NCBI GenBank assembly: GCA_051867135.1
Contig: JBJDYH010000223.1
Coordinates: 11,597 to 75,596, forward strand
Source of the DNA: Faecousia sp.
GTDB lineage: Bacteria; Bacillota; Clostridia; Oscillospirales; Oscillospiraceae
DNA: 64,000 nt
Direction of reading: 5' to 3'
How positions within the stretch are numbered: position 1 is the first letter of the stretch; every line of letters starts with the position of its first letter. Under the pieces are notes generated by a model. It worked only from the letters and a program-made list of their open reading frames with translations, ran no database searches and had not been told where the DNA came from. Below, one piece after another: positions 50,487 through 62,057 of this stretch. A program made the translations under genes and the position numbers.

Positions 50487-52046
50487 TTAACACAAGCCGG
50501 GGGTTTCGTGTTGATTACGATTTCCATTGATCCAATCCACCACAGGCTGCGCTTTGGACATTACATCCTCCCATGTGAGCTCTTTTCCGGTAGCTACATA
50601 CTCATAGAAATCATTAAGAATCCCGGAGAGTTCCTTGACATCACCTTTGGCATCGGCATTTTTTATCAGCTCCCTGGCAGCAGCTTCTACGCTGCTCTTG
50701 GTAAACTTAGTGCCTCCGGTAACTTGACTTTGCAGCTTCAAAAGCTGCTTGAGGTACTGGTTGTCCTCCTGAAGTTTGGCATTGCTCTTTTCCAGAGCCT
50801 TGTTGGCTTTCTCAAGAAGCTTTTCCTGCTCAGACATCTGCTTGCTGACAAACTCCCGGCTAAAGCGAATGTCATGGTTCGTAGTTGGGTTGGTATTGTC
50901 CACATTTTTCGCTTTTGTATGGCTATTTACCAATGCTACCCACGCAGTTTTTACAATATCATAATTGCGGAACATGGTTCGTAAGCCATTTTCGTATGCG
51001 CCAGAATGAATTTGGCCAGCAATACGAGCAAGAATCTCCTCTGCGTACAGCACAGATGCGTCACTATTACTGTGTTTAGAAACCTGATATGCAGATGCCA
51101 CGGATAATGCAGTTAAAATATATCGTTCAGAATAGTCAATTAGTTGGTCACGAAGAATGGAAACAAATTCCTCTCGCCCAGCTGCTTCACCCCAAATATG
51201 GAACGCCTCATGGCCCGCAACCTCCATAGCATTACCCGCAAATCTTGCCTGAATACCAACGATACATTCATTCCCGTCAATTAATGATATGGAATTATCC
51301 TTAATGCGATAGGTGTAACCATCGTCGTTATATTCCATTTTTTGAAAGGCAAAGGAATCTATCCCTAGTTTCTGGAGTTCTCTTTGGGTTCCTTCAGCAT
51401 AGGCAGTGATATTATACGAGTTTGCTTCTTCGTAAGCATACGCAATCTGCCCGATTTTTCCGCTTGTTTGTGCGCTTCCATGCACTCTCGTAAGAAAACT
51501 TTGTCTATCTTCAGATTTTCCTTTTTGTCCATTTCGAAAAACCTCCTGCTTTTTCTCCTTACTTGCTTTTATATTCATTTCAGGCGGTGCTCTGCCTTGA
51601 TTCTGCGCCTTTTCCTCCTGGGCAATGCGCCGGATTTCCTGCATAAACCCTTCCATATCCGCCCGGTCTTCCGGCGCAAAGGCGTTCATGTCTGCCTGGC
51701 TGTCGCATACGATTTCCGTAAACACTTCCATCGCCAGCGCATCGGTGCCGGTTTCAGCGTCATATCCCATGTCGAACGCTTCGGAATACATGGTGATAAT
51801 ATTCTTTACCGCTTCCTCTGTGCCGCAAAGCTCAACCAGCCGGTCATATACCTTGCGAACATCCACCTTATCGTTCAGGTTTTCGCTTTCATGGCCAAAT
51901 TCCCGGTGCGCCATCTCGTGACGCAGTAACTGCTGCGCCGTGAACTCAGGGTGGTCCGCACGGATAAAAACTTTATCGCCGCAAATTGCCGCCCTCACTT
52001 CACCAACGCCTTTAATTCTCAGGTTTCCGCCGGTAAAGCATACCAC
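50487..52046 (-). pseudogene. Fragment of phage polyvalent protein with two HExxH metallopeptidase-like modules
   Basis: HEMAH (51906-51920), HEAFH (51198-51212), NVDNTNPTTNHDIRFSRE linker; no clear start; runs into host terminator. Confidence 0.7.
51365..51532 (-). CDS. Nested 55-aa ORF (+1 frame), MDKKENLKIDKVFLRECMEAHKQAEKSGRLRMLTKKQTRIISLPMLKEPKENSRN
   Basis: AGGAGG SD 9 nt upstream of ATG; hand-translated, absent from the ORF track. Confidence 0.55.
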   Translation of the reverse strand: MDKKENLKIDKVFLRECMEAHKQAEKSGRLRMLTKKQTRIISLPMLKEPKENSRN

Positions 52047-53280: not shown

Positions 53281-53464
53281 GTGGCGCGGAGAAGGAGGGA
53301 TTTGTTTAATCAAGGTAGCAACCAGTTTTTGAACTGGTTGCAGCAATATGCCACCGGCATATTGCGATTTATAATTTTCAAATCCCTCCTTCTCCGCCCA
53401 AAAAAAGAAGCCACCCATTTGGGTGGCTTCCTTTTTTTGGCGGAGAAGGAGGGATTTGAACCCC
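53281..53464. repeat. Three tRNA-Ser 3'-end copies including probable prophage att site (53438-53463, minus)
   Basis: TTCAAATCCCTCCTTCTCCGCC at 53377-53398 (+) and 53439-53460 (-); degenerate copy 53281-53304; arm-like repeats tcat(a/c)tcaaaa at 53511-53533. Confidence 0.75.
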
Positions 53465-53567: not shown

Positions 53568-56500
53568 TCACCCATTTTTAGCATCCAGCACCTGCTGTCC
53601 AACCTGTTTACTGTATGGGTTATTCTTAGCGCTGGTAGAGCCGGTGGCAATCTGCCAAAGGACAGCTTTCTGTTCCATAGTCATACCGGACATACTATCA
53701 ATGGCTGTCTGTATCTCTTTGTTCGAGTAACTGCCATTGCCGTCAGCATCGTAGTCGGACTTAATCTCCTGTAGCTTGATATAGTTTCTGGGTGTTACCC
53801 CGAAATCATAAGCTAACTCCACTTTAGCATATTGCTTCTCATCCATAGCACCACGGAGCGCCGAAAGCTGTATTGCTTCATTCGTGGAAAAATCAACACA
53901 TGTCTGCCATTTCTGAATATCGGTTACCTTATCATTACCCGGCTCCGGTTCCAAATCCTCTAAAGCATCGACAAGATACAACGCCTCATCCTTGGAAAGG
54001 CCAGCCTCCGTATATTCCAGATAGTCGTCTAAATCGCCATTTGCCTGTACCATAGTCAAATACTCATCAACAGTCATACCTTCTTGCATGGCATCCAGCA
54101 GTTTGGCATATTCCGTAGGCTTCCCGGAAGAAGTCTCCATATCGGTACCCATGAGCTCGCCTACCAGCAGAAGCTTCTCGTTCTCGGTCAAATCCGCATC
54201 AAGAATCACTTTCCGTTTGGCAGCCTTTTCGCCCCTCTCTAGCAGCTCAGCAGCCCGGTAGCCATACACAACATCCAGAATCGTTCCGGCATCCACGCCC
54301 TCATCGTCCAGTATATCCATAACCTTTTCCAAAGTCTCGGATTCAAGAATACCATAAACAGCGATTGTTTTTCCCTCATCAGAAATATTGCTGCTCCTGA
54401 TTATGTCCAACTGCACATCCTTTTTTGCTTTGTCTTTGGTTTTCTCAGCGCTTCGCAGCGCATCAATAAGTTCATAGGCATCTCGGGCTTTCACGCCGGC
54501 ATCCAGCATATCTTTGTACATAGCAGTTTGCTTTGCACCAAGGCTATCAAAGCCGCTCTCAACCCACTGCACGGCCTCAGGTACAGAGTTCTTGCCCATA
54601 ACCGCAGTACGCAGCGCATTTCCCAACGCTTCGATAGGGCTTTCCTTGTAAATCGGATACTGCAAAATGTCCTGACCATTTTTATCAACGGTGTAACTCC
54701 CGCCCTCGGAAAACGCCTTCAGACCCTTCCATGTTTTTGAAATCTGACCGCCGCCGAATGGTGGAATCACATAGGCCAGTTTGTTCAGCTCATCCTGCAC
54801 CTTCTTCCACTTATACCGTCCATCCCAATCATCATTGGTCAGCACATCGACGAGTACACTTAAATCCGGGATGGCAGAAGAAACAGGGATTCGTCCTCCA
54901 TCGGTTTCGATGCCAAACAATGTCAGAGCCGCAGAAAACGGCAATTCGCCCAGACTGCTCTTCGCAATATTCTTAACGGCCTCCCCAGCACCTTTTTTGT
55001 TGGTTTCAAAGGATACATTTCCGCTTACTATACTGCTCAAACTCGGAATTTTGTAACCGGTTGTGTCTCCAACAAAATCGTTGATCAGGCTGATTGGGTC
55101 AAGCGCAGGCCGTCTTCCGAACAGAAGCTCGAACAAATCGTTGAAAAGATACGCCCGAACAAAGTACGAAAGAAACGACATTGCGATCTTAAAAGCAGCC
55201 TGTCCACGATAATGCCGGGGCATATCCTTGAACACTTCGCTGTACTGGTTATTTACCTCAAGCTGGAACTGGGTAAACATCTTTATGATTGGATTTACTG
55301 AATGGAAAAGCGTAGGCATATCGCCCTTAGCTCGTCCTGCCATAACACCGGCGGCAAAAATATCCGCCTCATGCAAGGCTTCCGTCTCCGACATACCGCT
55401 TTGCAGGTTCTTGTAGTAAGCAGCACGAAGAAGCGTGTCCGAAGAGAAGTTATCCACGATATTCATAAGAATACCCGCGAGCTCAGAGGCCTTCTGAATC
55501 TTAGTCTTTACCAGAACATCACTACCCCGTCTGCTGGTCAGGAAATCCGACTTCCCCACAATGCCATCATCCGCATTCCGCAAAGTATCCCACATAGCCC
55601 GCAGCATATTCCTGTCGCCGACACGGCCGGCAGCCTGAACAAGGGGAATAAAATTCGTCATGGCAGAGCTCACATTGCCTACTACCATATTTGCGCCAAC
55701 CCGGCTGTTCAAGTTTTTTGCAAGACGGTAAAACCGATTTCTGCCAAAAAGTGCCTCAACTCCACGGTCAAGTCTGCTTTTTTTGTTAGCCAAAAGATTG
55801 GTGTACTCATCCAGCTCATTCACGAAGTTGCTCAGCGAATACTTGCCTTTCTCCAATGTTGACTTAATTAAGTCTTCCTTTTCCGTATCGCTCAAATCTT
55901 CTCTTGTGCGGATATTATCAACCTGCTTTTGGATACCTTCCTCGCTGGTTCGATAGCGTATTTGGGTGGCCAGCGCACGCAGGTTTTGGATATTCTCGGT
56001 ATGGAAGATTACATCAGACACGCCCTCAATGTACCGGTCAAAGCCCTCTACAGCGTCATACACGGTATTAAACCCCAAACGCTCCTGAGCATTGCCAAAC
56101 CAGGTAGTACCCGGCTTGAATGTATGGGTAAGGCCGTTTATGGTTGTGGGCAGCACATCTACCTGGGTATCAATACCAAGTACCTTACCGAAGTATGCCA
56201 TAATGCCATCGCCGCCGTCCGGCTGGAAATGGGGGAAGTATCCCTTACGGTAGCTTACCGGCTCATAGCCGAAGCGAACCCGAACTTCATTCATCATGGT
56301 AAACAACTCATCGTAAATCTGCCTGAACTGCTCCACGCTGCGCTGAATCTTGGCTTTATCCAAATTAGGATTACTTCCCCAAAGGTCAAGAATGACCGCC
56401 TGCCACTCCTCCAGCGTCTTACCATCCCGGGTCTTGATATAACCTTGTGTCTGCTTCAGTGATTCAATATTGTCCTGAGCCTCACCAAGAAGCTGAACAG

Positions 56501-59500
56501 CGTGGGCTTCGGAGACAACATTTCCTTTGGCAACTTTTCGGCTCAGATTCATATCTGCGACACGGTTGCGCATCTCCGTTTTGAATCGAGTACGCGCGGC
56601 TTCGGCTATCTGCACCGGCTCAAAGTAGGCGCTTAAAACCTGCTTGGCAATCACCTTATCGGGAACAATGTCATAGACATTCCTCGTCATGGTCTCGCGG
56701 CTGTACTGAATGCCCATGGCCTTATCTTTCCATTCGTTGGCAGTTTCCAGATAACTATCCGCTTTTTCAAACAGAGCTGCATGCACCTGCCGTTTATACT
56801 CAGTAATGGACTTCCGGGCCTCCTCATACTCCTTCTTGGCCTCGTAAACCTCCCGAATGCCTTCCACATTATCCTTGCTGGGGTCTAGCTGTTCCAGAGA
56901 CATTTCACCCCGCAGCAGCTTGCCAACAATTTCCTCGTCGGCCGCCGTAAGCAAATTTCTTCTCACGGCCCGTTCGGAATTCCGCCGGGCATTCTTCATT
57001 TTGTTTCCGGCTTCCAGAGCTTCCTCCACGGTGCGTACCTTGGGCATCTGAGCCTTTTTCTCGGCCTGTGCCGCTTTATCCTCGCCGAACCGGCGAACCT
57101 TCCACAGGTCATTCCTGAGCTCATCGATAACGCTGTCAAAGCTCTCCCGTGCTGCCTGCTTCATCGTTCCGGCTGCCACGCCATAGTATTCATCCAGGCT
57201 CTGCTTCTGTTTCACAATGGAGTTAGCAACTTCATACATCTTCACCAGTTGATCTGCCGGGTGGGTAATCTCCTCCGGGAACAGCTCCGGCGCCATGCCC
57301 CGCAGCTCATCGTAAAAAGTATCAACCGGAATACCGCCCTCATTGACGATCCTCAGCGTCCACCGGCTTCGCTTTTTGAAATCCAGAAAGTCCACAATAT
57401 CTCCCTGATCACGGGCATCCAGAGTGACCGCTGTAGTACGCAGCTTATCCTTGATATCCTTGTACTGGTCATAGAATTCCCGGTCTTCAATTTCTCCCTT
57501 GCGCCAAGCGTCTTCAAAAAGCTGGTCTGCTATCTCCTGAGATATCTTTCCGGTTTCCAAATACGCATCAGAAAGCTGTTGCACCGTACCCCTCAGAAAA
57601 TCTCTTGCCTCCGCGTAGGGAACGCCAAATGTGTTACGAAGCGCCTGAAAAGCCTTCCACTCCTTGCTTGTCAAAGTATCTCTTGCTTTCGCGGGAAGAT
57701 TTTCCCGAGCAATAGGCGTTACCTCCTCAGCTTCCAACGGCTCTGCCTTTGGCTCAGCCCTACCGCGCATTTCTTCTACCTCTCCGGCAATCTGCGCCTC
57801 GTCCGCATCTTGGTAGCTATCGTCAAACGAAAATGTTTCCTTTGCTAAATATGTATCATAAACCGATTTATCTCCGTATTCAAAGATATCCATGAAAGGA
57901 ACGCCCTCAGTCTTGACATTTGAGCCTTCATAAGATATACTACCTATGTAACCACCCTGAGTGCAGGTGATAGGCGCAGAGAGGCCTATCGCCGAAAGCA
58001 GACGGGTGGTTCTTTTTTTGTCCGCGTATAGTACATCGCTCGACTCAAGGAAAAACCTTCCGTTTTCATCGGCATTACGATTCCGGGTCTCAGTCTTTGT
58101 ATAAACACTATTAACTTTCTGCATATCGTTAATATAAAAACCTTTTTCCACAGGGTGCATATCAAAGACGACAAGAACAGGACGCCTATTTTCGGCTAAA
58201 ACAGAACCATACAGAATCAATCGAGAGTTTATACCCTTGCTGGTCAAAATTAATATGGGATCTTCAAGGATTTTTGGAATATCTGCCAAAATATCAATAG
58301 AAACTTCTGGATGATCGTGGAGTATTTTCTTTGCCTTTTCCGGGGTTAGGTATATATCACTTTCGATACCTCCAAGTGCTTGGATCACACTTCCTGTGCT
58401 TCCAAGAATGAATGTAGGGACATCAGTGCTTTGCCCAAATCTATTCCAACTGCGAATATCTTCAGCAAAAGCAATAGCCTCCCCTGAGTAAACGCCCGGC
58501 CTTTCAGTAGAAAACCTCTCCACCGGCGGCCCGGTGGGCTGCTCCGTACCGTTCTCCTGCATCTGCAATCGTCCGACACCGTTTTCGTCCATCCATCCTC
58601 TCACGCCCTCTGTGAACCTGTCAGCCCCAGCGCCAAAGGCATTGATGCCTGCGTATGCGTCCGCGAGAACTTCCTCCACACACCGTCTGAAGGTTTCCTC
58701 GTACTCATCGGCAGAGGCATTCTCTTGACAGCCATAAATCGCCCAAAGGTTATCCTTGTAGGTATCCAGTACCCGGCTAAACTCCTCCATGGAATGCTGC
58801 TCCATAATACTTTCCGCAAGGAAATCGACCATAGAGCGAAGCTCGTTTGATTTCCAGTGGAAAATCTCATGGTCACCGAGCTGCTCCACAGAAACTTTGT
58901 TGTCCGCCTGAAGAATAATCTTATCGGATTGGAAAACACCCCGAGCATAGCCAACGCGGCCGTCAGACCTGGCAACCTCGATGCCGCCTATTACATAAGT
59001 AACCGTGCATCCCGTTTCCTCATAAATCTGCTTGGCAGTAAGCTGCAATTCGGCGTCCCAATGGCTCTCAGGGATTACTAAGAGATTCTGCGCATCTGTG
59101 CCGTTCTGTAGACCCAGTTCCTTGCTGCTGACATTCTGGATTATGCCTTGTCGCCGTAAATCATTCGCAGCATTCTGTCTTTGAACGCTTGCCACTGTGC
59201 CTGAGTAGGCTGCGGGCCGTTTCCCTGCTGCGCGGCTTCCCAGGCTTCCAGCTTGCTCTGCGGTACCCGGGTCAGCATACCGTCCCTGCCCTCCATCAGA
59301 TACACCGTTTCCTGTGACGGTTCCGGGCTGGGTAACTGTAGGGGTCTGGGTTCGTTCGTTGCTGTTTGCATTTACTGTACCTCCGTTCTTATTTGTAAAG
59401 TTAAACTTATTGCCAATCCTACTTACCGCTTCGCCAGTAACTTCTTTGACGGTCTTGGACTGAACCTCTTTGGTCGCCCGAGCATAAGCCCGGCCCTCTG

Positions 59501-62057
59501 TCTCGGACTCCATCCGGTCGATTTCGTCCATAATTTGATTATATGTGTCAAAGTCAATTTCACCGGCAGCAAAAGCATGCTCCACCGCCCCCCGGTCTAT
59601 GCTCTCGCCTCTCGAAGTGTCAGGTTCGGACACATTTTCAATTCCCATCTGCCGGGCAATCTCAGCCTGGAAAGCCTCTTGGCCAGTTATCGACTTCTGC
59701 TGGGTATCATTCTGGGTTTGTGGTGAGGATTCCGTGGGAGTATCCTCCCTGCTTTCTTCGCTCTGGATGCGCTTTCCTTGTTCCTCGGCCGCGGCTGCAG
59801 CATATTCAGCACGAATAGCATCCTCATCGGCCTGAACAAGCTGAACAATCTCAGCACCGCTCAATTCTTTGCCACTATTTACCCTCTGCTGAAACTGCAC
59901 AGCCAGCAAATAGCTCAAGCTGTCATGGTCAGATTCCAAACCCTCCGCAATCAGCTCTTCCACGGAGCTTCCATATATTTGCTTAACCCTTTTGTTTTGC
60001 TGATGATTGGAATAGGCATTAACCGCAGAAGAAAACACACTCTCACCGCCGCCAAGCAATAAGCCAACGCTGGCACCCATGCCAAATTCCTCGGCCATCT
60101 CCTTCAGATTCGCAAGCTGCGTGTCTGGTGCATAGGCAACCTTCGCCACCAAATTGTTTACAAAGCCCTGTAAGACTTCCTCGCCGCCTTCTTCCGCAGC
60201 GGATACCAGCCACGCAAGCAGCTTATTGCCGTCGCCCATGAGCTCCTCAGGCAGGCCCTGAATACCGCTTGTACCGCTGAAACCCACCTCAATGCCGGAG
60301 TTGATTAACGATGTAATTGTGGCACACAAGGCAGCCGTCGTGTCGCTGGCACCCATGGACTTGGCCTGTTCGTAGTCGCCGCTATATGTTCTCCCATAGC
60401 TGAGCCAGAAGCTGGGATTCCTCGCCATGTTCTGAACCGTAATACCTGCCTTCGTCAAGAAATTGCCGCTCATATACGCAGCGTTTGTGGCAAGCCTGGA
60501 AGATGTGGCTCCAGCGGAGCTTCCCGCTGTCATGAACGCAAGCACCGCATCCGGAACAGCAGCAACCGTGCCCTCGATGATGCTGCCCGCAATATCGTAA
60601 GCCTTGCCGCCGCCCATTTTCTCCTTATAGAGGTTTCTGTTAAATGCCTGGGCATTATATGCATCGCTGTAATAGTCAGAAACAGATGAAACAGGATTAT
60701 TCTTCCACCCCAACGCCTGCAAGGGTTTTCCTACCAAATAGTCAAGAGTACCGGTAATGCTTTTGTTGAAAGAGCCTAACCCAGATATGGCAGAAGCTCC
60801 TAACCAATCCAAAAAATTGCCAGCAGAAAAGTTGCTGTCTCCTGTCATCAGCGAATACCACTCATCAGGGTCTACACCTGCCTTTTTCATTTCGGCCATA
60901 ACTGTATTCTTATAGCTATCACTTACCTTACCATTATTGGCTACAATATACTGCAGAGCTTCCAGAACGGTGCGATTCTCACCCGGCATGCTTACCTCGG
61001 AAAGAATCTGCATTTTCTCGTCCATAAGCTTGGAATTGTACAGGTTGGTATAGAAAAGATTCTCATCGCCGGTGCTGGAAACCATTTTAACCTGCGCTTC
61101 CCGCAAGGTCATGGCCTCCGGTGCATACGCTTTCAGCCATGCAAGTTCTTCCTCCGAAATATCCGGCGTTCCCTTGCTCGCAGACTCCCGCATTTCCTTG
61201 ACCTGCTTATACAACTTACCCCATTGAGAATTGACAGACTTTCGTTCTTCCAAAGCTTCAGGCGTGCCAATTTCCCAAAGTTCAGCAGCTCTCTCAGCCA
61301 ATTCGGTTTTTTGCCGCTCAAGTTCAGCGATTTCCGCGCTGGTATTCGCATCGATGCCCTCTATCAGACATTCCAGCTCCGTATAACTCTTACCGGCGTA
61401 CTTTTGACGATAAGCCATATCCTGCTGCCATGTTTTATAGCTGTCTTCCGAATCCCAGTTCCCATAGAAGTCTGCCAATTCTTTGATTGTGCCGGAATTG
61501 TCTTTGCTAATCTCGGCATACAGGTTTGTAAGCTGCTCGGAGAGCTCTGCATCGCTTCCGTAATCCGCATACAGCTCGCTTATCCTGCTCAGAATCTCCC
61601 TGCGCTGGTTGTCGTAGTCCGTTCGGAAACGCTCTATCTCGTCCTGACTGCGCCATCGATCACTGCCAAATTCCAAATTCCAGCTATTGTAATGATTGTA
61701 CAGTCTGTCCTGCAAATCGCGAATCTTGTATTCCGGGTTTTCCCTGACAAGCCCCTGCAAATCATCAAAAGAAGGCTTGAGGCCGGAAGACAAAGAAAAA
61801 TTAACATTGTCTTGGTACTTTTGGTAGCCAGTTTGTGCCTTGCTGCCGGATTGCGCGGCGTTTTCAAGTCTTGCCTGGGCCTGAAGATATTCAAAAGAAG
61901 GTTTGGTTGTCACAGACTCATCGTCTGGCTGAACGGTCGCAGGCTTATTGACGGGCCGGGCAGGCTGCCCATCCGCCTCGGCAGAATCATCATAATTAAC
62001 TGCCTCCGGCTTTTGGTAAGCCAGTTTTTTCAATTCTTCATAAGACGGCTTTCCCAT
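53568..62057 (-). CDS. Phage large polyvalent (DNA ejection-type) protein, 2829 aa
   Basis: EEGGEEVLQ-type helical region, HEIFH zincin module (58857-58871), MuF-C/PBECR-like module (KILHDHPE..IPKILEDPILILTS), LPD38-like C-terminal region (FTQFQ, PFGGGQISK); domain names from recall. Confidence 0.85.
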   Translation of the reverse strand: MGKPSYEELKKLAYQKPEAVNYDDSAEADGQPARPVNKPATVQPDDESVTTKPSFEYLQAQARLENAAQSGSKAQTGYQKYQDNVNFSLSSGLKPSFDDLQGLVRENPEYKIRDLQDRLYNHYNSWNLEFGSDRWRSQDEIERFRTDYDNQRREILSRISELYADYGSDAELSEQLTNLYAEISKDNSGTIKELADFYGNWDSEDSYKTWQQDMAYRQKYAGKSYTELECLIEGIDANTSAEIAELERQKTELAERAAELWEIGTPEALEERKSVNSQWGKLYKQVKEMRESASKGTPDISEEELAWLKAYAPEAMTLREAQVKMVSSTGDENLFYTNLYNSKLMDEKMQILSEVSMPGENRTVLEALQYIVANNGKVSDSYKNTVMAEMKKAGVDPDEWYSLMTGDSNFSAGNFLDWLGASAISGLGSFNKSITGTLDYLVGKPLQALGWKNNPVSSVSDYYSDAYNAQAFNRNLYKEKMGGGKAYDIAGSIIEGTVAAVPDAVLAFMTAGSSAGATSSRLATNAAYMSGNFLTKAGITVQNMARNPSFWLSYGRTYSGDYEQAKSMGASDTTAALCATITSLINSGIEVGFSGTSGIQGLPEELMGDGNKLLAWLVSAAEEGGEEVLQGFVNNLVAKVAYAPDTQLANLKEMAEEFGMGASVGLLLGGGESVFSSAVNAYSNHQQNKRVKQIYGSSVEELIAEGLESDHDSLSYLLAVQFQQRVNSGKELSGAEIVQLVQADEDAIRAEYAAAAAEEQGKRIQSEESREDTPTESSPQTQNDTQQKSITGQEAFQAEIARQMGIENVSEPDTSRGESIDRGAVEHAFAAGEIDFDTYNQIMDEIDRMESETEGRAYARATKEVQSKTVKEVTGEAVSRIGNKFNFTNKNGGTVNANSNERTQTPTVTQPGTVTGNGVSDGGQGRYADPGTAEQAGSLGSRAAGKRPAAYSGTVASVQRQNAANDLRRQGIIQNVSSKELGLQNGTDAQNLLVIPESHWDAELQLTAKQIYEETGCTVTYVIGGIEVARSDGRVGYARGVFQSDKIILQADNKVSVEQLGDHEIFHWKSNELRSMVDFLAESIMEQHSMEEFSRVLDTYKDNLWAIYGCQENASADEYEETFRRCVEEVLADAYAGINAFGAGADRFTEGVRGWMDENGVGRLQMQENGTEQPTGPPVERFSTERPGVYSGEAIAFAEDIRSWNRFGQSTDVPTFILGSTGSVIQALGGIESDIYLTPEKAKKILHDHPEVSIDILADIPKILEDPILILTSKGINSRLILYGSVLAENRRPVLVVFDMHPVEKGFYINDMQKVNSVYTKTETRNRNADENGRFFLESSDVLYADKKRTTRLLSAIGLSAPITCTQGGYIGSISYEGSNVKTEGVPFMDIFEYGDKSVYDTYLAKETFSFDDSYQDADEAQIAGEVEEMRGRAEPKAEPLEAEEVTPIARENLPAKARDTLTSKEWKAFQALRNTFGVPYAEARDFLRGTVQQLSDAYLETGKISQEIADQLFEDAWRKGEIEDREFYDQYKDIKDKLRTTAVTLDARDQGDIVDFLDFKKRSRWTLRIVNEGGIPVDTFYDELRGMAPELFPEEITHPADQLVKMYEVANSIVKQKQSLDEYYGVAAGTMKQAARESFDSVIDELRNDLWKVRRFGEDKAAQAEKKAQMPKVRTVEEALEAGNKMKNARRNSERAVRRNLLTAADEEIVGKLLRGEMSLEQLDPSKDNVEGIREVYEAKKEYEEARKSITEYKRQVHAALFEKADSYLETANEWKDKAMGIQYSRETMTRNVYDIVPDKVIAKQVLSAYFEPVQIAEAARTRFKTEMRNRVADMNLSRKVAKGNVVSEAHAVQLLGEAQDNIESLKQTQGYIKTRDGKTLEEWQAVILDLWGSNPNLDKAKIQRSVEQFRQIYDELFTMMNEVRVRFGYEPVSYRKGYFPHFQPDGGDGIMAYFGKVLGIDTQVDVLPTTINGLTHTFKPGTTWFGNAQERLGFNTVYDAVEGFDRYIEGVSDVIFHTENIQNLRALATQIRYRTSEEGIQKQVDNIRTREDLSDTEKEDLIKSTLEKGKYSLSNFVNELDEYTNLLANKKSRLDRGVEALFGRNRFYRLAKNLNSRVGANMVVGNVSSAMTNFIPLVQAAGRVGDRNMLRAMWDTLRNADDGIVGKSDFLTSRRGSDVLVKTKIQKASELAGILMNIVDNFSSDTLLRAAYYKNLQSGMSETEALHEADIFAAGVMAGRAKGDMPTLFHSVNPIIKMFTQFQLEVNNQYSEVFKDMPRHYRGQAAFKIAMSFLSYFVRAYLFNDLFELLFGRRPALDPISLINDFVGDTTGYKIPSLSSIVSGNVSFETNKKGAGEAVKNIAKSSLGELPFSAALTLFGIETDGGRIPVSSAIPDLSVLVDVLTNDDWDGRYKWKKVQDELNKLAYVIPPFGGGQISKTWKGLKAFSEGGSYTVDKNGQDILQYPIYKESPIEALGNALRTAVMGKNSVPEAVQWVESGFDSLGAKQTAMYKDMLDAGVKARDAYELIDALRSAEKTKDKAKKDVQLDIIRSSNISDEGKTIAVYGILESETLEKVMDILDDEGVDAGTILDVVYGYRAAELLERGEKAAKRKVILDADLTENEKLLLVGELMGTDMETSSGKPTEYAKLLDAMQEGMTVDEYLTMVQANGDLDDYLEYTEAGLSKDEALYLVDALEDLEPEPGNDKVTDIQKWQTCVDFSTNEAIQLSALRGAMDEKQYAKVELAYDFGVTPRNYIKLQEIKSDYDADGNGSYSNKEIQTAIDSMSGMTMEQKAVLWQIATGSTSAKNNPYSKQVGQQVLDAKNG
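57913..58020 (+). ncRNA. Putative antisense small hairpin RNA inside the polyvalent gene
   Basis: TTGACA(57913)-17-TATACT(57936); stems aaccaccc/gggtggtt and ggtgataggc/gcctatcgcc; T7 tract. Confidence 0.7.
59141..59371 (-). CDS. Nested 76-aa protein (+1 frame inside the polyvalent gene)
   Basis: GGAGGT SD 7 nt before ATG; globular-looking sequence while the host frame is a G/Q/T/A-rich linker. Confidence 0.65.
   Translation of the reverse strand: MQTATNEPRPLQLPSPEPSQETVYLMEGRDGMLTRVPQSKLEAWEAAQQGNGPQPTQAQWQAFKDRMLRMIYGDKA

Follow-up and report, generated by a model that had tools for sequence, protein, structure and literature searches.

The Rz1 gene of phage lambda is a small +1-frame gene wholly embedded in Rz, with a ribosome site of its own, and its product partners the product of the host gene. 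The propeptides and cognate protein inhibitors of metallopeptidases bind the edge strand of the enzyme like a substrate. Phage-type polyvalent proteins are encoded by giant genes of the virion module and comprise a HExxH...E peptidase hub with variable cargo domains behind it (Iyer et al. 2017, PMC5512222). The zincin-like metallopeptidase (MPTase) domain is the commonest hub of these proteins and has been proposed to process them into units by autoproteolysis, with neither a known site nor a known control (PMC5512222); a like protein of 2811 amino acids (aa) was found in phi24B virions (10.64898/2026.04.10.717836). The 64,000-nucleotide stretch of Faecousia sp. DNA analysed here (the window, contig JBJDYH010000223.1) carries a giant prophage gene of this type, coding for a 2829-aa protein with an MPTase domain and MuF_C as the cargo behind it. 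Ahead of the zinc motif of the peptidase, in the +1 frame, lies a 76-codon open reading frame (ORF), P0001, which is almost certainly a real second gene within the giant one.

The likeness of this locus to Rz1/Rz consists in an embedded +1 gene with its own ribosome site, coding for a predicted partner of the host gene product, while it differs in that the partner would, by prediction, block an enzyme domain within a protein of 2829 aa, in that each such domain has a copy of its own, and in that the module recurs elsewhere in the genome as a fusion. With the metallopeptidase propeptides and inhibitors it shares a predicted antiparallel strand in the active-site cleft that touches the zinc ligands, but it is encoded in another frame, not at the N-terminus or by a neighbouring gene, the small protein has no fold match, and inhibition is in this case a prediction. 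In the main text of the paper on polyvalent proteins (PMC5512222), neither a partner gene in another frame nor a regulator of the peptidase nor a motif at the junctions was seen; the words "overlap" and "RFS" occur in it 0 times, and "nested" is used only for a hairpin fold. No paper describing the nested gene, a regulator of the peptidase, or the junction motif was found among literature listings and the starts of abstracts, with supplements and subscription journals outside this scope. Polyvalent proteins with a peptidase are already known, as are embedded partner genes.

The nested gene is located at 59141..59371 on the minus strand, with the ATG at 59371 and the TAA stop at 59143-59141. 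Its Shine-Dalgarno sequence GGAGGT (59379..59384, minus strand) lies 7 nt 5' of the ATG and has a duplex energy of -10.9 kcal/mol. Both the GGAGGT-7 nt-ATG arrangement and the 76-aa ORF (minus strand, 59384..59141) had been described in an earlier, sequence-only reading of the window, and the peptides quoted there are found in the nested product. An in-frame TAA abuts the ATG on its 5' side and thereby fixes the start, and the end of the ORF lies about 90 codons ahead of the main-frame zinc motif HEIFH (aa 1063-1067; 58857..58871, minus strand). The best candidate start per ORF, expressed as the energy of the Shine-Dalgarno duplex, reaches -8.1 kcal/mol or lower in 26/26 representatives of the family, while only 6.8% of 1730 other out-of-frame ATGs are at -7 kcal/mol or lower. 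No promoter of its own is claimed for the nested gene, since the sole minus-strand site found upstream is a 9/12 match at 59557 and the region contains 4 sites against 2.6 expected. A look-up of sequencing runs covering this region returned none.

The sequence-only reading had proposed a real overlapped protein, and the comparison of the two frames bears this out: homologs keep the +1 frame unbroken and better than the main frame, not the reverse. The mean pairwise BLOSUM score over the overlap region of the 26 representatives is 1.82 for the nested and 0.91 for the main frame (1.72 for the peptidase itself), or 1.59 and 0.98, respectively, when the alignment is made on the main frame instead. 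Stop codons in the overlap number 0/1365 in the +1 frame and 63/1365 in the third frame, and the identity of main-frame third positions is 0.55-0.58 in the overlap versus 0.38 in the peptidase. In 12 clusters of close relatives, variants changing only the main product occur at 0.239 per site and those changing only the nested product at 0.087 (binomial p 8e-8, with no transition bias modelled), and variants silent in the nested frame are 2.8 times denser than those silent in the main frame. Counted by main codon position, the variants number 92/40/45 in the overlap, compared with 89/77/282 in the peptidase. Nested stops arise from two variants, possibly as edge effects of the ungapped comparison. 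Purifying selection thus acts on the nested frame apart from the main one. The description of the main frame as a disordered linker is valid for the 5' part of the overlap but not for the last ca. 20 nested codons, which overlap helix 1 of the peptidase model (aa 951-969, predicted local distance difference test (pLDDT) 78-97), and the main frame retains weak constraint in the overlap.

It is very improbable that the +1 frame is no separate gene, whether it merely follows from the coding of the main frame or is linked to the peptidase through ribosomal frameshifting of -1. Such a reading is favoured by the derivation of the TAA from main-frame V/I-S codons in most relatives (TAA in 57/70), while the preference of selection for the nested frame, the strong ribosome sites present in every one of the 26 representatives, and the occurrence of the domain outside any overlap, as a fusion, argue for a gene. 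A -1 frameshift into the peptidase was rejected, no slippery heptamer being present in the last 10 codons of 70 representatives.

An index-free search with P0001 gave 83 matches at E<=1e-3 among 50%-identity representatives, which makes the nested ORF more than a chance one. One of them (P0045) is an unrelated repeat protein, 35 are at least 100 aa long, and the others are small (37-94 aa). G31 and V36 do not vary among 46 small members, and P37 and W44 hardly do; the conserved hairpin comprises residues 22-37 (Y24, L25, M26, E27, G31, V36, and P37; 59261..59308, minus strand). A profile search added 79 matches, mostly from contigs of 0.5-1.5 kb, and such an origin is expected, because gene finders call the nested gene only where the giant ORF is cut. 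A word-indexed protein search with P0001 alone gave nothing, a scan of viral contigs gave three candidates of which none was confirmed (0/3), and P0001 had no match in Pfam and PHROG and no usable match in the Atlas; among 50,697 GenBank phage records, no relative of the peptidase or of the small protein was matched. The results point to a gene family that lies out of frame, and without annotation, in many gut prophages.

The position of the nested gene in front of the peptidase is fixed. When viral loci were fetched by a main-frame peptidase motif, which sits more than 150 codons downstream, 79/80 had a family +1 ORF ending 76-97 codons before HExxH (the eightieth is cut by the contig start); these 80 loci include many near-duplicates, with 26 representatives below 85% peptidase identity, the window and L003 counted, the weakest nested ORFs score 12-19 bits, and the query alignment was built from loci first found via the small protein. 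A peptidase-profile search of whole genomes gave 41 loci, nine of them without an open main frame upstream; the nested ORF is present in 29 of the remaining 32, the window's own locus included, as scored with a profile that contained proteins from some of those same genomes, and the three loci without it match the peptidase only in part or weakly. Scanning three collections with DNA patterns yielded 159 loci and 154 matches of the domain, 6 loci being chance matches. The domain is nested before the peptidase in 141 of these matches (71 distinct), adjoins the peptidase but is unspanned in 2, and is non-nested in 11 (9 distinct); the named records are mostly Oscillospiraceae and other Clostridia.

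The hairpin/helix pattern noticed earlier in the product is reproduced by AlphaFold2, which predicts strands at residues 23-27 and 33-37 and helices at 38-48 and 57-75, that is, a beta-hairpin followed by two helices. Alone, the 76-aa product has a mean pLDDT of 78.5 and a predicted template modelling score (pTM) of 0.41, and no fold match was found for it (best Foldseek E 1.8, best VIA Z 2.3). The MPTase domain (aa ca. 951-1158; 58584..59207, minus strand), whose first helix shares its DNA with the last part of the nested gene, models well by itself (pLDDT 90), and its fold matches to zincins are weak (lethal factor with prob 0.84 and E 0.07; PprI with Z 5.4, rmsd 3.7, and 88 aligned residues). 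Its residues H1063, E1064, H1067, and E1129, the last being the third zinc ligand (58673-58671), are invariant in 43 aligned rows. Searching solved structures with profiles brought up nothing beyond weak, unrelated matches. As neither of the chains is clearly related by sequence to a solved structure, the recall of a like complex by the prediction is unlikely.

The complex of the nested protein with the peptidase, predicted with zinc, scored 0.73 (runs of 0.73, 0.66, and 0.77) and the best of three controls 0.08, which passes a mark reached by 116/157 solved complexes and 2/215 mismatched pairs. The runs share at least 63% of contacts, the pLDDT of the partner is at least 63, and the interface comprises 127-147 contacts. 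The surest of them place strand 22-27 of the nested protein antiparallel to aa 1036-1043 (GYARGVFQ), the edge strand of the peptidase, which in zincins is the strand that pairs with the substrate; the interface also takes in the zinc ligands H1063, H1067, and E1129. The nested protein is predicted to bind its linked peptidase in the active-site groove, and we consider such binding likely. The earlier suggestion that the small protein regulates the metallopeptidase is supported by this prediction, through the scores given above, and by co-occurrence, a nested ORF preceding each of three peptidase-like domains in one gene.

As for the role of the binding, we lean towards the nested product being a cognate pseudo-substrate inhibitor that prevents premature self-processing of the giant protein. 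Cleavage by the peptidase at R-[YF]-S-[VI]-[DE] junctions would set free the cargo domains of the giant protein, while the Y-L-M-E strand of the small protein would mimic the junction site and occupy the active-site groove. Made from the same late mRNA, the small protein would allow the giant protein to be packaged intact and would spare the producing cell the cargo; the peptidase would be freed where its partner is absent, in the virion or in the newly infected cell. The inhibitor and the cleavage motif, both candidates, make the self-processing proposal directly testable with two short proteins and one peptide.

In the window the putative self-cleavage site is the R-F-S-T-E junction motif behind the peptidase (aa 1181-1185; 58503..58517, minus strand). 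The pattern [RK][YF]S[VILT][DE] was observed 17 times behind the peptidase versus 0.3 in shuffles, and [RK][YF]S 44 times versus 9.6, with no enrichment in reversed controls; by eye, the motif sits at domain junctions. In a 3964-aa protein (genome G198), a looser pattern gives nine copies. The sequence of the nested strand is x-Y-L-M-E, with Y or F in 81/103 and E in 87/103 cores at the respective positions, and matches the aromatic, hydrophobic, and acidic positions of R-Y-S-V-D. On these sequence patterns, R-[YF]-S-[VI]-[DE] may be the cleavage site of the peptidase and the nested strand its mimic. Covariation was calculated for 154 pairs (about 75 effective), and the top inter-protein pair was nested R35 with the residue before HExxH (2.45, the next pair having 1.48); in the raw table the charges are complementary, residue 35 being R in 23/29 cases when the residue before HExxH is D or E, and in 4/20 when it is R or K.

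Several points weigh against an inhibitor. The mimicry was recognised by eye only, and the S-to-L and R-to-V/R/S differences depart from it. The covariation of R35 is not significant in a tree-aware test (three independent pairs on well-supported branches, median p 1), its covarying partner D113 is absent from the listed contacts of the complex, and the enrichment of interface pairs among the couplings fades from 12 in the top 25 (7 expected) to 30 in the top 100 (28 expected). The calibration of the complex score holds only roughly for a prediction with its own alignments and zinc riding along, and a model in the cleft cannot separate an inhibitor from a chaperone or a substrate. Nor is the nested gene restricted to active peptidases, since it occurs with two HExxH-less domains and in six remnants without a peptidase match. 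One of these domains is the third of the 3964-aa G198 protein (locus L314, G198:C2), whose gene codes for three peptidase-like domains, every one preceded by a nested ORF; the ORF of the third is divergent, and no strong start was found for it. The other is the peptidase copy of locus L316, likewise with a divergent nested ORF. A domain without HExxH has no activity to inhibit. The six remnants, decayed chromosomal loci (L134, L309-L312, and L315), retain the small gene and have no match to the peptidase in the vicinity.

The persistence of the nested ORF beside the two HExxH-less domains would suit a small protein that binds the peptidase chiefly as a trans-acting propeptide or chaperone, serving its folding and escort to packaging, with blocking being secondary. 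The small gene occupies the very place of an N-terminal propeptide, one frame off, and its product, which by its pTM has no compact fold alone, has a large predicted interface. We nevertheless find this role unlikely, given that the peptidase domain folds confidently alone and that the membrane fusions in repressor-recombinase clusters, described below, are hard to square with a folding role. A far less probable alternative is that the small protein activates the peptidase, or brings substrates to it, and so triggers processing as the virion matures; the prediction gives binding only, and some polyvalent proteins are processed before packaging (PMC5512222), both of which such a role would accommodate, but in the model the small protein lies on the edge strand and on the zinc ligands, both of which a zincin substrate would need.

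In the six remnants the small gene is intact and the peptidase gone, and the loci sit among host genes. Its retention there could be due to protection or to search bias. The fact that the small gene outlives the peptidase there has a bearing also on its target, which might be a host protein, an antirepressor protease of the ImmA/IrrE type, or the downstream cargo domain, a real gene having been overprinted on a linker that tolerates it. The M78 peptidase adjoining a fused copy in 2/5 lysogeny clusters points in the same direction. We regard such a target as improbable, however, because the spacing to the peptidase is fixed while the downstream cargo varies, there is one nested copy per peptidase domain, and the complex scores well above its controls; moreover, since the remnants came from searches with the small gene, the set is biased towards such loci. 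Two variations in the number of nested ORFs were also observed. In locus L317 two nested genes lie in tandem. The giant gene of L314 contains, in a different linker (codons ca. 1652-1714), a further +1 nested ORF of 62 aa with a strong ribosome site (-11.5 kcal/mol); by eye its hairpin-helix pattern is similar, and it has no score with the family profile.

In longer homologs of the nested protein the domain is fused, mostly to membrane proteins, and 29/35 of them contain a hydrophobic segment. The basic residues, scored in 28 proteins, favour the domain side in 18, are tied in 5, and oppose it in 5, which gives a modest hint that the fused domain is cytoplasmic. The fusion partners include Ada zinc, zinc-ribbon, HhH, and Mrr domains, and one fused protein has two domain subtypes in tandem. 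Five of the nine distinct non-nested loci lie within clusters with a helix-turn-helix (HTH) repressor and a serine recombinase, two of these five being the clusters with the M78 peptidase. The nested form is present on three of the contigs with fused copies and, in a fourth genome, on another contig. When the fused domains were compared with 103 nested cores, seven 666-base loci (L266-L271 and L273) being left out as their non-nested label is a length-threshold effect, the best match was the copy from the same genome in two cases (45/55 and 41/53 identical residues), and in the other two this copy ranked 46 and 67. It would appear that the nested gene has been copied more than once onto membrane anchors. 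The genome of the window itself (70.7% complete) yielded no fused copy.

The fused copies are likely expressed in the lysogen, and the results offer a candidate role for a group of membrane genes in lysogeny clusters that lack a characterisation. In P22, the prophage protein SieA excludes superinfecting phages by acting on the ejection proteins, the DNA conduit (PMC10883804). The fused copies are possibly a superinfection exclusion system of this kind, in that a prophage membrane protein would act on injected proteins of related phages; unlike in SieA, what would be targeted is a peptidase domain, and the module that binds it would be copied from the nested gene of the phage itself; a sequence link between the two was neither tested nor seen. 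By a weaker extension of the inhibitor model, the anchored copies might capture the peptidase of a related phage on its entry, or keep it silent. The whole scheme, in which gut Clostridia phages have a self-processing code, with cutting at the junction motif and a +1 inhibitor per peptidase domain, and prophages use membrane-anchored copies to disarm the injected protein of superinfecting relatives, is put forward tentatively and is in our opinion doubtful. If true, superinfection exclusion would act here on the processing of cargo and not on the entry of DNA.

The host gene (53568..62057, minus strand) lies 3' of terminase-, portal-, and internal-virion-like genes, and its product matches a 3513-column PHROG family of unknown function. 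The genes upstream of it on the contig include one for an internal virion protein (PHROG 511), and portal-like and terminase-like ORFs that were recognised by eye from their translations. The host gene fits a phage-type polyvalent protein in a prophage, which is probably defective because the terminase-like ORF is only about 1.5 kb from the contig end. The MuF_C domain comprises aa 1242-1350 (58008..58334, minus strand; Pfam PF18819, E 4e-11).

A shortened remnant of a second polyvalent gene is located at 50487-52046 on the minus strand. It codes for 519 aa and has a first peptidase domain (HEMAH) devoid of its upstream part; no nested gene was found before this domain. Inside the remnant, at 51532-51365 (minus strand), there is a second candidate nested +1 ORF of 55 aa with GGAGGT-7 nt-ATG (duplex energy -11.5 kcal/mol), ending about 51 codons ahead of the second HExxH (HEAFH). 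It has no match to the P0001 family, and a viral search with its host domain gave no relatives.

On the plus strand, antisense to the end of MuF_C, the segment 57913-58025 has a sigma70-type promoter (11/12; TTGACA-17-TATACT) and, behind it, a stable hairpin with a T-run (-34.9 kcal/mol, z -4.7); it has no match in Rfam and is a candidate antisense RNA against the cargo domain. In locus L058, a perfect TTGACA-17-TATAAT was seen by eye on the opposite strand about 40-70 bases upstream of the nested start, and L079 is similar. Antisense promoters at the ends of cargo domains may be recurrent in polyvalent genes. Finally, a repeat of ca. 21 bases occurs three times at 53283-53460, in two direct copies and one inverted. 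It resembles the 3' end of a tRNA, no tRNA being detected there by ARAGORN, and the repeats may be remnants of attachment sites at the prophage border.
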